Shown piece by piece: positions 1 to 15,535 of a stretch of DNA of 15,535 nucleotides (positions are counted from its first letter, which is position 1; each line of letters starts with the position of its first letter). The DNA is from a virus (taxonomy: Duplodnaviria; Heunggongvirae; Uroviricota; Caudoviricetes). Both the position numbers and the translations under genes were made by a program. Where the stretch lies: positions 1-15,535 of the IMG/VR virus record IMGVR_UViG_2634166457_000017; one strand, given 5' to 3'. The notes below the pieces were generated by a model. That model was not told the DNA's origin. It searched no databases and saw nothing but the letters and a program-made list of their open reading frames with translations.

Positions 1-1227
1 GTGGCAGGCACAAACAAACTGAGTGATAAAAAATTAAGATCGCTTCTCGGCGTAAAGCGGGATTCAGTAATTACCATTGCGGATGGTGAAGGATTAAGCA
101 TCAAAGTATCCATGATGGGATGCATTAGTTGGGTTTTCTCTTATCGTCTTGGTGGGCGTGGGAGCAAGTTAGAGCGCATTGTTCTTGGGCGTTACCCTGA
201 CATGTCGTTGAAAATGGCTAGGGAGAAGAGGGAACTATGCCGAAAATGGTATGCGGACGGGCTGAATCCACGACTTGAATTAGAACTTAGCGCAGAAGAA
301 AACCTTAACCCCGTAACTGTCCATGATGCCCTTGAATATTGGCTAATTCATTACGCAAGAAAAAAACGTAGTGACGAGGAACTCGTGCGGGCGCAATTAC
401 GTAAGCATATTTATCCGCGTCTTGGCCACTATCCGTTATCCCGGTGTGAAACGCGTCACTGGGTGACATGTTTTGATGAAATTAACCAGTCCAGGCCAAT
501 CACTGCCGGGCGAATGTTCCAGATTTGTAAACAGGCCTTAAGATTCTGCAAGGTTCGCCGTTATGCCTCATGTGATGCCCTGGCTTTTATGACAATCCAG
601 GATGTAGGGCAACCATCGGGGCAGCGTGATAGGGTGCTGTCAGATAGTGAGTTAGCTGATGTATGGCGGTGTACTTATAGCGATGAACAGCAATTTTATT
701 ATCTTCGTCTGCTTAAGTTGCTTGTGCTGTTTGGGGCGCGAACAATGGAAGTAAGATTATCCCGGTGGAGTGAATGGGATTTTCAGTCATGGATTTGGAC
801 GGTTCCTAAAGAACACAGCAAAACTCGTGAAAAAATAGTTCGTCCAATTCCAGAGGGCATTCGCCCATGGATTGAGGATCTAAAAAAGGAAACGGGAAAA
901 ACAGGAATTGTACTGGGTGAAGAACGTTCCCGCCAGGCTGCTTCGCTTAAAGGGCGTAGGCTATACAAAGATTTTCATCATAATGAGCCATGGACGCTTC
1001 ACGATTTGCGCAGAACATTTTCTACAGGTTTAAATAATATGGGTATTGCGCCACATATTGTAGAGCTTTTACTTGGTCATGCATTGCCGGGGGTGATGGC
1101 TATTTATAACCGTAGTCTGTACTTACCTGAGAAAATGGATGCGTTGAATAAGTGGTATGGCCGATTAGAACTTCTGGCTGGTAATCATCAAAATGTGGTG
1201 CTGTTACCTGTATCGAATAGAGGTTAA
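1..1227 (+). CDS. int: Tyrosine recombinase / phage integrase (P4-like, arm-binding N-terminus)
   Basis: 408-aa ORF; C-terminal catalytic region shows the R..HxxR..Y pattern (WTLHDLRRTFST, LLGHA, AIYNRSLY). N-terminus resembles P4-family integrase arm domain. GTG start sits at the window edge, so the true start could lie upstream. Confidence 0.85.
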   Translation: MAGTNKLSDKKLRSLLGVKRDSVITIADGEGLSIKVSMMGCISWVFSYRLGGRGSKLERIVLGRYPDMSLKMAREKRELCRKWYADGLNPRLELELSAEENLNPVTVHDALEYWLIHYARKKRSDEELVRAQLRKHIYPRLGHYPLSRCETRHWVTCFDEINQSRPITAGRMFQICKQALRFCKVRRYASCDALAFMTIQDVGQPSGQRDRVLSDSELADVWRCTYSDEQQFYYLRLLKLLVLFGARTMEVRLSRWSEWDFQSWIWTVPKEHSKTREKIVRPIPEGIRPWIEDLKKETGKTGIVLGEERSRQAASLKGRRLYKDFHHNEPWTLHDLRRTFSTGLNNMGIAPHIVELLLGHALPGVMAIYNRSLYLPEKMDALNKWYGRLELLAGNHQNVVLLPVSNRG

Positions 1228-3486: not shown

Positions 3487-3551
3487 CTCTGTTCTCCTTA
3501 CTGTTAGGTGGTGTTCAGTATACGGAGAAAAAAAATAAAAAAAGACTTGAA

Positions 3552-4391: not shown

Positions 4392-6136
4392 AACTGGCAC
4401 CGAACGTAAAAAAACAACCACGCGGAATAAAACACAAAGACACAGAGGTAATTATTTTCGCGGGTAGTGATGCGTGGGCACATGCAAAACAGTGGCAGGA
4501 GCAGGACGGCCCCGCATCCGGCGATGATGTGCCGCCTGTGTGGCTTGGGCCAAATCAGCTTGCCGAACTGGATGCGCTGAAAATTGTTCCGGATGGGAAA
4601 AAACGCGTAAGGCTGTACCAGGCCGGAGAACTGGATTTAGTGGAGACCAAAAAGATTGGTCAGAAGCTGGCGGCGGCAGATATTCAGGATGCGAATTTTT
4701 ACCCCGAAGGGATGCACGGACAGAAATGTGAGAACTGGCGGCGCTATCTGAATGCTGAGCGTGAAAATATTGCCGCAGGGATTACCATGCCGGAACAGAA
4801 AAAATCACAACTTTCACAGATGGCAGACAGTGAACGGGCACAGCTTCTTGCTTCCCGCTTTGATGGTGTCTGCGTCCATGCAGAAAGTGAAATCGTTCAC
4901 GTATGGCGTGACGGGGTATGGTGTCCGGTCAGCACAATGGAGCTGAGCCGCGAAATGGTGGCGGTTTATTCAGAACACGGGGCCACGTTCAGCAAGCGTG
5001 CAATTAATAACGCCGTTGAAGCATTAAAAGTTATTGCCCAGCCAATGGGGGAGCCGTCCGGCGATTTGCTGCCGTTCGCCAATGGTGCGCTTGACCTGAG
5101 AACAGGAGAATTTTCCCCGCACCAGCCGGATAACTGGCTCACCACCCACAACGGCATTGAGTACACGCCGCCAGTACCAGGGGAGAATATCCGCGACAAC
5201 GCGCCAAACTTTTATAAATGGCTTGATCACGCTGCCGGAAAAGACCCACACAAGATGATGCGCATATGTGCCGCGCTCTACATGATTATGGCGAACCGGT
5301 ACGACTGGCAGATGTTCATTGAGGCCACCGGAGACGGCGGGAGCGGTAAGAGTACATTCACGCACATTGCCACACTACTTGCCGGAAAACCGAACACGGT
5401 GAGCGCCGAGATGACATCGCTTGATGATGCTGGTGGGCGTGCGCAGGTTGTCGGGAGCCGCCTTATCGTTCTGGCAGACCAGCCGAAATACACGGGCGAG
5501 GGCACGGGCATCAAGAAAATCACGGGCGGCGACCCCGTGGAGATTAACCCGAAATATGAAAAGCGATTCACGGCGGTAATCAGGGCGGTTGTGCTGGCAA
5601 CCAATAATAACCCGATGATATTCACCGAACGGGCCGGAGGCGTGTCACGTCGTCGGGTGATATTCCGGTTCGATAACATCGTAAGCGAGGCAGAAAAAGA
5701 CAGGGAGCTACCGGAAAAGATAGCGGCAGAAATCCCTGTCATTATCCGCCGCTTGCTGGCGAACTTTGCCGACCCTGAAAAGGCACGGGCTTTACTCATT
5801 GAACAGCGAGACGGTGATGAAGCACTGGCGATAAAGCAGCAGACGGATCCGGTTATTGAGTTTTGCCAGTTCCTTAACTTTCTGGAAGAAGCACGCGGCC
5901 TGATGATGGGCGGCGGCGGTGACTCTTCCAGGTACACGACCAGAAACAGCCTTTACCGCGTCTATCTGGCGTTTATGGCGTATGCCGGCAGGAACAAGCC
6001 GCTGAACGTGGCTGAGTTCAGCAAAGCTATGAAGCCAGCGGCGAAAGTTTACGGACATGAATATATAACGCGCAGGATTAAAGGGATTACGCAAACCAAC
6101 GTGACAACAACAGACGACTGCGACGCGTTTTTATAA
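4388..6136 (+). CDS. Phage/plasmid primase-helicase, P4 family (D5_N-like plus SF3 NTPase)
   Basis: 582-aa ORF; Walker A GDGGSGKST; GGGGG SD upstream; immediately followed by iteron array. No obvious TOPRIM EGYATA motif seen, so it may be helicase/initiator only. Confidence 0.85.
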   Translation: MKLAPNVKKQPRGIKHKDTEVIIFAGSDAWAHAKQWQEQDGPASGDDVPPVWLGPNQLAELDALKIVPDGKKRVRLYQAGELDLVETKKIGQKLAAADIQDANFYPEGMHGQKCENWRRYLNAERENIAAGITMPEQKKSQLSQMADSERAQLLASRFDGVCVHAESEIVHVWRDGVWCPVSTMELSREMVAVYSEHGATFSKRAINNAVEALKVIAQPMGEPSGDLLPFANGALDLRTGEFSPHQPDNWLTTHNGIEYTPPVPGENIRDNAPNFYKWLDHAAGKDPHKMMRICAALYMIMANRYDWQMFIEATGDGGSGKSTFTHIATLLAGKPNTVSAEMTSLDDAGGRAQVVGSRLIVLADQPKYTGEGTGIKKITGGDPVEINPKYEKRFTAVIRAVVLATNNNPMIFTERAGGVSRRRVIFRFDNIVSEAEKDRELPEKIAAEIPVIIRRLLANFADPEKARALLIEQRDGDEALAIKQQTDPVIEFCQFLNFLEEARGLMMGGGGDSSRYTTRNSLYRVYLAFMAYAGRNKPLNVAEFSKAMKPAAKVYGHEYITRRIKGITQTNVTTTDDCDAFL

Positions 6137-13636: not shown

Positions 13637-13641
13637 CGAGA

Positions 13642-13926
13642 ATGAGCGAAACCGAACTACTAAAAATAATCCGCCGCATTACCGGAATCAGCCAGGAAGC
13701 AGGCAAACAGGAGGCCACGCAGCCGGACAGCGTGATAGCCGAAAATTACGCGCGTGTGGTGGCTGAGGTGATGCGCCGTGATGGTATTGAGCTTAACGGC
13801 GTGGATATGCGAGACATACGGATCCGAGTTCTTGAAATGCTGGCCTACAATCGCCGCGTGGAGATGTACCGGGAGAAAGAAAAAATTACTTACCACTGGA
13901 AGAAGCCGGAGCGGTTACGGCGGTAA
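13642..13926 (+). CDS. Hypothetical protein (possible head completion/adaptor function)
   Basis: 94-aa ORF immediately after terL; no recognisable motif. Confidence 0.45.
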   Translation: MSETELLKIIRRITGISQEAGKQEATQPDSVIAENYARVVAEVMRRDGIELNGVDMRDIRIRVLEMLAYNRRVEMYREKEKITYHWKKPERLRR

Positions 13927-13931
13927 CTTTG

Positions 13932-14204
13932 ATGACTGATAACGTAGATTTGCGTCATCATAAAAATCAATTGGTTACGATTACAGGCGGCGTTGTAGCC
14001 TGTTACGATTATCGTAATCCCTTTCTGTATGACAGGGTGGCAGGTATGGTGATTTCCGCCCCTCCTTTGCAAATTGACAACGTAGTGTGTGATGTCGAAT
14101 TAACTCCGTACGTTAAACGTACGGAGTTCCCGGCAGGCTTAGGTTCCGACGAAATTCGTCGACACCTCCCGGCAGGAACAGCGAGAATTACGTCGCTGAT
14201 GTAG
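13932..14204 (+). CDS. Hypothetical protein
   Basis: 90-aa product from ATG 13932 (ORF-track start 13929 is TTG); last ORF of the island; weak RBS. Confidence 0.4.
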   Translation: MTDNVDLRHHKNQLVTITGGVVACYDYRNPFLYDRVAGMVISAPPLQIDNVVCDVELTPYVKRTEFPAGLGSDEIRRHLPAGTARITSLM

Positions 14205-14998
14205 CCTACGAAATTTTCGCAGGTTAATTATCTATCTGCTTAATCGCTAACCCACTGATTTTTATGATGACTCAAATTTGAAGCATCTTTGTTTACGTTG
14301 ATATTGTGTCAAAGCCCTTTTTCGGGCTTTGGCCTAACCCGCTGATATTTTCGGAAACAGCCATCGACTGAGGCCGGAGTAACCGACTATCTTTGAGATA
14401 GTCAGATGTACGAAATTTGTGCGGGACTAAAAGTCCCGCGCAAATTCACTACATCACCGTAATGGTTATGCAGTCCACCAGCAACCATAACGATTTCCGT
14501 TACTGTTGATGTGCTTTTTTGCTGGTAAGGCGTAATCCGTTGATTGTTCCACAAACCTCAATTTGAGGAAGCCGGAAAACTCACCCGCCAGATTCTGAAT
14601 GGTGAAAATCACCGGGGATCTGAATAGGCATTTCCTCTATGGAGGTCGCACCGTTTTCGGGAGAAGGTGCGATCATGTTCGTCATACCGGTTCCGTTGAA
14701 ATGAAATAGCCCTGTATGGGCATCATCACCATGCAGGGGATCAAAATCTCTGTAGCTTCATGTTGCCGGGACCGCCAGCCTCGCCAAATTTTTGCGTTTG
14801 TGAAAAACGAAAATTATTACGTGCTTTGCCCTCTCCTGTTTCTGATGTTGTATACTCGCGGCCTTCTAATTGTGCTGGTGCTTTTTTGAGATTGTGGCGC
14901 TGTGTATCGATCCGTATATCATTCGGTGTATCACTTTTGATAAATTGCTACGTGTGAATTTGTTTTTAACTGACAAAAATCAGTGGGTTATGTGAATT

Positions 14999-15535
14999 AT
15001 GAAACATATTGTAGAAGTAATGATCCCCGAAGCGGAGATTAAAGCGCGTATCGCCGAACTGGGTCGTCAGATTACTGAGCGTTACAAAGACAGCGGCAGC
15101 GATATGGTGCTGGTGGGTCTGCTGCGTGGCTCATTTATGTTTATGGCGGACCTGTGTCGTGAAGTTCAGGTATCTCATGAAGTCGATTTTATGACCGCCT
15201 CCAGCTACGGTAGCGGCATGTCCACCACCCGTGATGTGAAAATCCTCAAAGATCTGGATGAAGATATCCGTGGCAAGGACGTGCTGATTGTTGAAGATAT
15301 CATCGACTCGGGGAATACACTGTCGAAAGTGCGTGAGATCTTAAGCCTGCGCGAACCGAAGTCGTTGGCGATTTGTACGCTGCTGGATAAACCGTCCCGT
15401 CGTGAAGTGAACGTCCCGGTAGAATTCATCGGTTTCTCGATCCCGGATGAGTTTGTGGTGGGTTACGGCATTGATTACGCACAGCGTTACCGTCATCTGC
15501 CGTATATCGGCAAAGTGATTCTGCTGGACGAGTAA
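14999..15535 (+). CDS. hpt: Hypoxanthine phosphoribosyltransferase
   Basis: 178-aa translation [30 protein letters not shown]...[17 protein letters not shown]...[10 protein letters not shown] is recognisably enterobacterial Hpt, including the PRPP-binding [13 protein letters not shown] motif; complete CDS ending at the window edge. Confidence 0.95.

Follow-up and report, generated by a model that had tools for sequence, protein, structure and literature searches.

What happens to a host gene when a phage satellite inserts into its very beginning, and what is the DNA that then stands in front of it? The question is raised by a 15,535-nucleotide viral record (IMGVR_UViG_2634166457_000017, Caudoviricetes; hereafter the window, to which positions refer unless another locus is named). 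Between the late genes of an island and hpt, a housekeeping gene of purine salvage, this record carries about 800 bp (14205-14998) which a sequence-only reading had described as structured, non-coding DNA. Here we argue, with a probability of roughly two in three, that these 800 bp belong to the right arm of a phage-inducible chromosomal island (PICI) of the capsid-forming kind, which a tyrosine integrase has inserted into hpt, within the first 19 nt of the gene, and that three parts are juxtaposed in this arm: a left part with box motifs and palindromes, a middle zone (14444-14712) and a right part that reaches into hpt (14713-15017).

The window island is 96-99% identical to the island annotated between gcd and hpt in Escherichia coli ATCC 43886 (locus L001). 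Its int gene (window 1-1227) shares 99.2% identity with L001 3547-4767, where a tyrosine-type recombinase is annotated, 175 bp from attL and thus at the junction opposite attR. The genes following int encode a primase, SSB, capsid, protease, portal, connector and HNH proteins, a P27-family TerS and TerL. Since capsid and packaging genes are present and tail genes are absent, this is the make-up of a capsid-forming PICI, and on its gene content the island is classified as such an element of E. coli, lying between gcd and hpt.

The junction with hpt and the island arm

When 14205-15535 was compared with 5426 complete E. coli genomes, 5425 of them matched from base 14998 onward only, and at least 80% of the query was covered in just 9. 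Since the match begins at 14998, and in view of the att alignment, the entire 14205-14998 is island DNA and none of it is chromosomal. Alignment to island-free hpt loci puts the junction at a block of identity, ATGAAACATAYTGTAGAAG, which is shared by attB of strain K-12, attL of ATCC 43886 and four attR sequences; the flanks change from chromosome to island exactly at this block, and the DNA preceding hpt is not identical to the island-free upstream sequence. Together with this shared block, the location of int at the opposite junction and the presence of co-oriented repeats on both arms identify the right junction as attR. The sequence-only reading had rightly thought of attR, and its arm is indeed found here; the core, however, lies within hpt itself and not in the non-coding DNA.

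At position 11 of the block, attB and attL have a C and all attR sequences a T. The hpt product is WP_000680691.1 in island carriers, and WP_000683335.1 in island-free K-12 as well as in the closest island-free allele. Judging from these sequences, the T, which changes Thr4 of Hpt to Ile4, travels with the island. Since it comes with the island, strand exchange within the block most likely takes place 3' of position 11, in the TGTAGAAG half. The attP site would then read ATGAAACATA(T)TGTAGAAG-CAAAAATT, and attB ATGAAACATA(C)TGTAGAAG-TAATG.

The native promoter and leader of hpt remain at attL, ~15 kb away, and point into int. In ATCC 43886 (L001 3354-3546), they are fused, with the first 19 nt of the gene, to the left end of the island, and the fusion opens an open reading frame (ORF) of ~30 codons (MKHTVEAKIILY…) toward int on the same strand. 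With this arrangement, the host hpt promoter could transcribe into the integrase gene. Hence, the non-coding DNA does not hold displaced regulatory sites of hpt, as had been suggested; it is island DNA that substitutes for them.

The segment 14713-14998, 99% identical in ATCC 43886 and 96% identical in the remaining hpt islands, is found neither in islands at other sites nor in the island-free genomes compared. Its tandem repeats (Table 1), which are candidate binding sites for the integrase arm domains, contain GGTGTATCACTT. This sequence also occurs twice in tandem, co-oriented, upstream of int (L001 3501-3524). There, the left arm (3490-3524) reads TAGTATCGAG followed by the two copies of GGTGTATCACTT, in the same orientation as in the right arm, and the two arms, both made of tandem GTRTATCR repeats, are 83% identical over 36 nt. 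The three repeats of the right arm are situated ~80-110 bp upstream; relative to the crossover, the positions are ~80-90 bp upstream in the right arm and ~144-154 bp downstream in the left one.

Closer to hpt, the core-proximal box is an exact match to the consensus of integration host factor (IHF), AATCAGTGGGTTA, with an A tract in front. Part of it is homologous to TTAAATCATATGGTTA of the native hpt leader; more generally, the last ~50 nt before hpt are a diverged homologue of that leader (ATTTGTTTTTAA … AAATCA … GGTTA). In published data, a second lineage of hpt PICIs has the related AAAATCAGTGGGATA / AAAATCAGTGGG at the position of the box, and the P' arm of L001 carries an IHF site with one mismatch to the consensus. 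An inverted repeat, ACTGA-caaaaa-TCAGT (14960-14985), overlaps the box and has an equivalent at this place, ACTGAT-taaa-ATCAGT, in the second lineage; it could be a core-type integrase site or a hairpin of the hpt leader.

As to the expression of hpt, a relaxed scan yields a sigma-70 candidate whose TATACT is the only -10 hexamer identical to that of native hpt (TGgTATACT), and which is possibly, on its sequence, the substitute promoter. An exact-pattern scan of 185,579 species genomes for a native source of the island leader gave no match. The segment also contains an ATG ORF of 65 aa (14760-14957), so that the earlier statement that no ORF of at least 60 aa lies in the region does not hold; no coding sequence is annotated over the stretch homologous to 14205-14998 in three RefSeq genomes.

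A repeated module related to roi and rha

The repeat that had drawn attention to this DNA is real and is 16 nt long rather than 15: TAACCCACTGATTTTT recurs as a perfect inverted copy in front of hpt (14975-14990). Its direct relative, TAACCCGCTGATATTT, also exists but begins at 14335 and ends at 14350, not at 14337 and 14353, and two further copies, on the plus strand at 14533-14548 and on the minus strand at 13962-13977, had been overlooked. With up to three mismatches, the pattern TAACCCRCTGATWTTT has 8 matches in the window where 0.52 are expected, a number reached in 0 of 200 shuffles; five of the 8 cluster in 13962-14990. The exact IHF consensus WATCARNNNNTTR is found 5 times in the 15.5 kb, always within 13965-14990, against 1.3 expected windowwide. 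With their A/T tract on the 5' side, these are predicted IHF sites. No copy of the repeat is found at the other end of the near-identical ATCC 43886 island, and, contrary to what had been suggested, the copies as a class are not arm sites of the integrase; only the one at 14975-14990 may plausibly belong to the recombination site, where it would serve as an IHF site. The idea that the distal and core-proximal 16-mers covary was rejected: both have C in the window and both have T in L001, but islands L006 and L008 pair a distal TAACTC with a proximal TAACCC.

Two palindromes noticed earlier are likewise present, shifted by one or two positions: GACTATCT-TTG-AGATAGTC lies at 14385-14403 instead of about 14384-14402, and GCGGGAC-TAAAA-GTCCCGC at 14421-14439 instead of about 14423-14441, inside a longer palindrome (14405-14455) which has relatives in Fels-1 and, inverted, in island L003. 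The description of the whole region as structured applies only to its left third. Indeed, 14205-14460 folds far better than shuffled sequences (z of -6.97 and -6.61 for the two strands), against z values of -2.1 for 14461-14760 and +1.7 for 14761-15020, the right third being neither structured nor rich in palindromes.

The boxes at 14335 and 14533, and nearly all boxes of other satellites, are followed by a palindrome. On the plus strand, the resulting module, ~54 nt in length, consists of the IHF-consensus box, a spacer of ~5 nt, a 13-bp palindrome and RAGNYNGG. From nine right ends of E. coli islands and 78 viral contigs, 57 distinct copies could be aligned without gaps. In the 5-bp helix of the palindrome, 95.4% of the cells are paired, and all five pairs change on both sides, the stems including CCTCA/TGAGG, CCCCC/GGGGG, CCTGC/GCAGG, CAGCC/GGCTG, CCACC/GGTGG and TCGCC/GGCGA. 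Their covariation score amounts to 0.508, compared with 0.119 for shuffled alignments (0 of 500 reach 0.508), and controls slid along the alignment give at most 0.147. In the 78 viral contigs, each element carries one to four copies, all on the same strand and most commonly spaced by 54 nt. One of these arrays, in a helper-embedded PICI located in a lambda-type portal gene (L020 600-720 and 1000-1215), has three tandem 54-nt modules with three self-complementary stems (CCTGC, CCCCC and CCTCA), and a doubled TGTATTGC near its junction.

The origin of the module is suggested by its complementary strand, which corresponds to codons 35-65 of lambdoid genes of the roi/rha type. In tblastn searches (E 2e-5 to 0.02) the module always hits residues 35-65, and Pfam family PF09669 (Phage_pRha) is found on the matching phage proteins; regulation of the phage function rha by IHF is on record (PMC4936722). 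At the DNA level, the module is 86-96% identical to the antirepressor gene of phi330 and to roi of HK629 and HK620, and the copy at 14529-14580 is 86% identical to the antisense strand of the phi330 gene. For the units of one array, the identity reaches 96% with the phi330 antirepressor and 90.6% with roi of HK629 and of Stx phages, the matches to roi/ant of HK620 and P27 being weaker (86.8%). In 80 viral loci, the KNGVIRLPQIEVSERINNLG codons are what the unit gives when reverse-complemented; the encoded motif reads …IRLPQIEVSERINNLG… in 80 lambdoid contigs, RHPQIEDCGRINGLG in the phi330 antirepressor and RNPPMVVFEKINNLG in HK629 Roi, and the minus strand of module copy 2 reads LKDSRLLRPQSMAVSENISGLG. 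As far as such comparisons can tell, the module is derived from the N-terminal coding region of lambdoid roi/rha genes. HK629 roi itself carries a textbook IHF consensus, AAAAAATCAATAACTTA. Roi of phage HK022 reportedly binds within its own gene, next to an IHF site, and IHF is said to stabilise this binding.

A minus-strand gene made of 18-aa repeats was considered for these units and discarded, since the window has seven stops in the frame and no coding sequence is annotated in three genomes. The three roi-like fragments do share one minus frame and tandem units stay open; the longest ORF of 18-aa repeats, in L020, has 74 aa, and no similarity to Rha is found outside the unit. The box pattern is not a dispersed genomic repeat either: 596 Gb of species representatives gave 35 matches, in unrelated taxa, a number within about a factor of two of a rough chance estimate (~17).

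The middle zone, 14444-14712, is found at 85-92% identity in the right ends of thiM and mdtJ satellites and at 78% in that of the clpS one. Its minus strand contains a decayed gene, …ATSIEEM…GG*VFRLPQIEVCGTINGLRLTSKKAHQQ*RKSLWLLV (N-terminal motif TSIEE; asterisks are stops), which resembles the Phage_pRha domain (tblastn E 0.002 with phage Rha-domain proteins). On the plus strand, the truncated small ORF shares its start with annotated ORFs of two further islands, 58 and 106 aa long; these intact versions match no Pfam family. Many islands have a PerC-family regulator and another small gene (97 aa) between the 94-aa gene that precedes the modules and this zone. Since genuine genes fill the place elsewhere, the zone can be regarded as a slot for accessory genes, empty and decayed here.

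Mechanism and competing explanations

These observations can be assembled into the following scheme. The right part, 14713-15017, would be the P arm derived from attP. The core domains of the integrase would exchange strands inside the identity block and its arm domains would bind the three tandem repeats upstream, while IHF bound at 14975-14990 would bend the DNA so that arm and core can be bridged. Integration separates hpt from its own promoter and leader. Since hpt is thereby cut from its native signals, the arm has to supply a leader, the start codon and the first codons, including the Thr4 to Ile change, and presumably also a promoter. The middle zone would be what is left of the accessory slot, in which a roi/rha-type gene has decayed (minus strand) and a small ORF has been truncated (plus strand). 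Finally, several co-oriented copies of the module would have been kept, most likely binding IHF and possibly the Roi/Rha protein of a helper phage.

Several points weigh against parts of this scheme. The supplementary files 5 and 6 of the study of hpt PICIs (PMC10111431) mark TATGAAACATA as the core in alignments of attL and attR, which puts the crossover there rather than in TGTAGAAG. Because attL is outside the window, the P' arm was taken from the 99%-identical island of another strain, ATCC 43886. A stricter promoter scan finds nothing in 14713-14998, and the relaxed candidate is weak, with a 19-nt spacer. The distal boxes, 450-1000 bp from the core, are too far away for a role in recombination. 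The sequence of the palindrome varies among copies, which argues against a single sequence-specific binder, and template-switch mutation in quasi-palindromes can produce compensated palindromes without selection. Moreover, the equation of the box and palindrome of the module with the mapped IHF and Roi sites of roi/rha is a putative one.

The explanation that competes best, possible even if we consider it the less likely one, is that the copies and palindromes are neutral scars of recombination between satellites and roi/rha of lambdoid prophages, and of the replacement of accessory cassettes. Palindromes would then be maintained by template-switch repair and, apart from the att arm, 14205-14712 would have no present function. 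Such a history would suit fragments whose minus strand gives roi/rha codons 35-65 interrupted by stops, boxes that sit at module junctions, and a match to phoQ-site islands that ends exactly at 14263, the 58-nt piece 14205-14263 being present in 634 of the 5426 genomes. Scars would also be expected where the order of blocks is shuffled between the window and L001, where the same slot holds real genes in other islands (PerC, the 97-aa gene) and where the neighbouring ORF is truncated. Against this, the same ~54-65 nt are always retained and never the better-conserved C-terminal part of the Rha domain, and the copies all point in one direction, frequently at a spacing of exactly 54 nt. In addition, the CCTGC and CAGCC stems have no counterpart in 50,697 phage records and are nevertheless palindromic, which suggests that copies diversified within satellites while remaining palindromes.

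It is doubtful that the left and middle parts specify structured RNAs, either small RNAs or the processed 3' untranslated region of the late operon, with the box as a single-stranded recognition element and the hairpin as an RNA stem, possibly antisense to roi/rha mRNA of the helper. The very low folding energy of the left third (z about -7) and a 5-bp stem that covaries and keeps a constant distance to the box would suit such RNAs, as would the antisense orientation of the plus strand of each copy relative to roi/rha mRNA, and the overlap of the first box with the stop codon of the last late gene, which would place the copies in its 3' untranslated region. However, searches with Rfam covariance models gave no match up to E 1 that comes near a gathering score (best E 0.11-0.93 for 13900-15100). 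No promoters or terminators above shuffle expectation were found around the hairpins, none of which is framed by such a pair, and the palindrome at 14310-14331 has no T-run after it on either strand. Kissing contacts would require loops larger than the 3 nt seen here. In the module stems, G-T or T-G pairs (6) and C-A or A-C pairs (5) are balanced, so that neither strand is favoured, as would be the case for a DNA palindrome. The small RNA proposed by the sequence-only reading is therefore neither supported nor refuted.

Some functional extensions of the preferred scheme, in which the copies are protein-binding sites, appear equally doubtful. Phased 54-bp arrays (~five helical turns) combining an IHF site and an operator-like palindrome might form a decoy or a sensor for IHF and Roi/Rha of the helper; the array would either titrate a phage regulator, thereby causing interference, or report the lytic growth of a lambdoid helper. 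As a variant, a plus-strand transcript of the array may act as a multi-allele antisense RNA against the roi/rha mRNAs of different phages.

Lastly, packaging signals (a cos or pac site which, like lambda cosB, combines an IHF site with repeats bound by TerS) are very improbable: several 16-mers with IHF consensus do lie directly downstream of terS and terL and cos sites of their own are known from PICIs, but no lambda-type cosN (GGGCGGCGACCT) is found in the region, satellites of the Rpp type that have modules carry their cosN 500-1200 nt upstream, beyond the rpp and 94-aa genes, and modules are shared by satellites with unrelated packaging (own TerS/TerL vs. Rpp). In Rpp-type satellites (L011, L013, L016, L022 and other viral contigs), two inverted lambda-like cosN sites ~500-900 bp apart are observed upstream of the 94-aa gene, an arrangement that fits the published cos1/cos2 of EcCICFT073.

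Neighbouring features and known systems

Table 1. Features of the right end of the island and of its surroundings (window positions; a dot stands for features given on neither strand in particular).
Feature	Position	Strand	Remarks
int-alpA RNA motif RF02996	1236-1302	+	Between int and next gene; 55.2 bits, E 2.6e-9
94-aa gene, phrog_1561	13642-13926	+	No Pfam; PHROG of unknown function
91-aa TTG ORF	13929-14204	.	No Pfam, no PHROG; fills 270-bp segment
Fifth box TAACCAATTGATTTTT (13962-13977)	13948-13977	-	In 30-nt inverted partner of 14248-14277, 90% complementary
Palindrome CCTACGAAA/TTTTCGCAGG	14205-14223	+	In piece 14205-14263
Module copy 1, box TAACCCACTGATTTTT	14248-14263	+	No palindrome; recombination junction cuts copy right after box
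Palindrome CAAAGCCC-TTTTTC-GGGCTTTG	14310-14331	.	Directly upstream of box 2
Module copy 2	14331-14397	+	Box TAACCCGCTGATATTT (14335-14350) and degenerate palindrome CAGCC-ATC-GACTG (14358-14370)
Perfect palindrome GACTATCT-TTG-AGATAGTC	14385-14403	.	Recurs after CAGCC-type modules of other islands
Long palindrome around GCGGGACT-AAA-AGTCCCGC	14405-14455	.	24-nt arms, 83% complementary
Decayed roi/rha-like gene	14452-14685	-	ATG 14685-14683, in-frame stops; six-frame translation
Module copy 3	14529-14580	+	Box TAATCCGTTGATTGTT (14533-14548) and palindrome CCTCA-ATT-TGAGG (14556-14568)
Truncated small ORF MFVIPVPLK*	14675-14704	+	Behind Shine-Dalgarno GGGAGAAGG
P arm and substitute hpt leader	14713-14998	+	Segment specific to hpt-targeting islands
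Sigma-70 candidate TTGCCC-N19-TATACT	14826-14856	+	Weak; relaxed scan; possible substitute hpt promoter
Three tandem 12-nt repeats CTGTGTATCGAT, CCGTATATCATT, CGGTGTATCACT	14900-14935	+	Candidate arm-type integrase sites
Core-proximal box AAAAATCAGTGGGTTA	14975-14990	-	Candidate IHF bend site; ends 9 nt before identity block
att identity block (attR core) ATGAAACATATTGTAGAAG	14999-15017	+	First 19 nt of hpt

The 94-aa gene is always the last one before the module copies, across satellites with very different packaging modules, and its stop codon falls inside the first box. With 13640-15017 as a query, that is, this gene and the DNA downstream, 1332 of the 5426 E. coli genomes match, mostly via the gene. 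It has 970 homologues and, among the matches listed (120), all are unnamed. We regard its product as an uncharacterised candidate partner of the module copies.

The 270-bp segment filled by the 91-aa ORF is bounded by 30-nt inverted repeats with one box in each, and the arrangement of the inverted partner at 13948-13977 is also found in a phoQ-site island (L007). Inside 13948-14277 are two near-perfect palindromes (14102-14128 and 14141-14167, the latter 85% complementary) and a sub-threshold match to Rfam 'uup' (E 0.11). The segment is common only to the phoQ-site islands (3 of the 5426 genomes). A miniature inverted-repeat transposable element delimited by the repeats 13948-13977/14248-14277 was considered and rejected, 13940-14263 being at least 80% covered in only 3 of the 5426 genomes. 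Elsewhere in the window, int-alpA is the sole Rfam family above its gathering score (Rfam 15), and GGGCGGCGACCC, one mismatch from lambda cosN, occurs on the plus strand at 5524-5535 inside the primase gene; as many related satellites have it in their primase genes too, it probably reflects coding conservation rather than a cos site.

The locus shows a satellite that occupies the 5' end of a housekeeping gene without killing it. In carriers, hpt is under island-borne signals (leader, start codon and probably promoter) and its product differs by one residue. The att annotation is corrected as well, the core being inside hpt and not in 'intergenic' DNA. As for the module, it ties the right ends of satellites to the roi/rha regulators of lambdoid helpers, which depend on IHF. 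Should proteins bind the copies, satellite and helper would have a further, new point of cross-talk there; if not, the copies would be a useful marker of recombination between the two. The module appears to be undescribed, whereas PICIs integrating at hpt and their att arm belong to known biology, which the present data support well.

Indeed, 49 hpt-integrating PICIs were described by the Williams laboratory (NAR Genom Bioinform 2023; PMC10111431). These PICIs have the same target and identity block as the present island, int on the gcd side and an attP replacement that keeps the gene intact. They differ by their attR leader, since the published one, …ttaactgattaaaatcagtgggatataaagttTATGAAACATA, represents another lineage than …ttaactgacaaaaatcagtgggttatgtgaattATGAAACATA found here. 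In the parts of the article considered here, neither arm repeats of hpt PICIs nor module copies at the right end are described. For helper-embedded PICIs, the same source mentions a doubled TGTATTGC motif at -81 and +132, which it takes to be either an AlpA site or an arm site of the integrase and reports as not found in other PICIs. The hpt island similarly has tandem co-oriented copies of 8-10 nt on each arm, ~80 bp upstream and 130-150 bp downstream, but the motif is GTGTATCAC instead of TGTATTGC and the downstream distance is ~144-154 bp instead of 132 bp.

The roi gene of HK022 is said to hold an internal IHF/Roi site, and rha of phi80 and P22 is reportedly regulated by IHF. Like the HK022 site, the module is homologous to the N-terminal region of roi/rha and contains a textbook IHF consensus. 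Unlike it, the segment is non-coding here, detached from its gene, repeated up to four-fold and carried by satellites rather than phages.

In lambda, attP contains the arm-type sites P1, P2 and P'1-3 and the IHF sites H1, H2 and H'. The hpt island resembles it by an IHF consensus ~30 bp from the crossover, at the position of lambda H2/H', and by tandem arm-type repeats on both arms. It differs in that the core is at the 5' end of a protein-coding gene and that the P arm also replaces the promoter and leader. Islands in the 3' ends of icd and tRNA genes likewise have an att block that duplicates part of the target, and the gene stays functional. However, these islands replace a 3' end, whereas the hpt island replaces a 5' end, so that the signals for the initiation of transcription and translation must come from the island.

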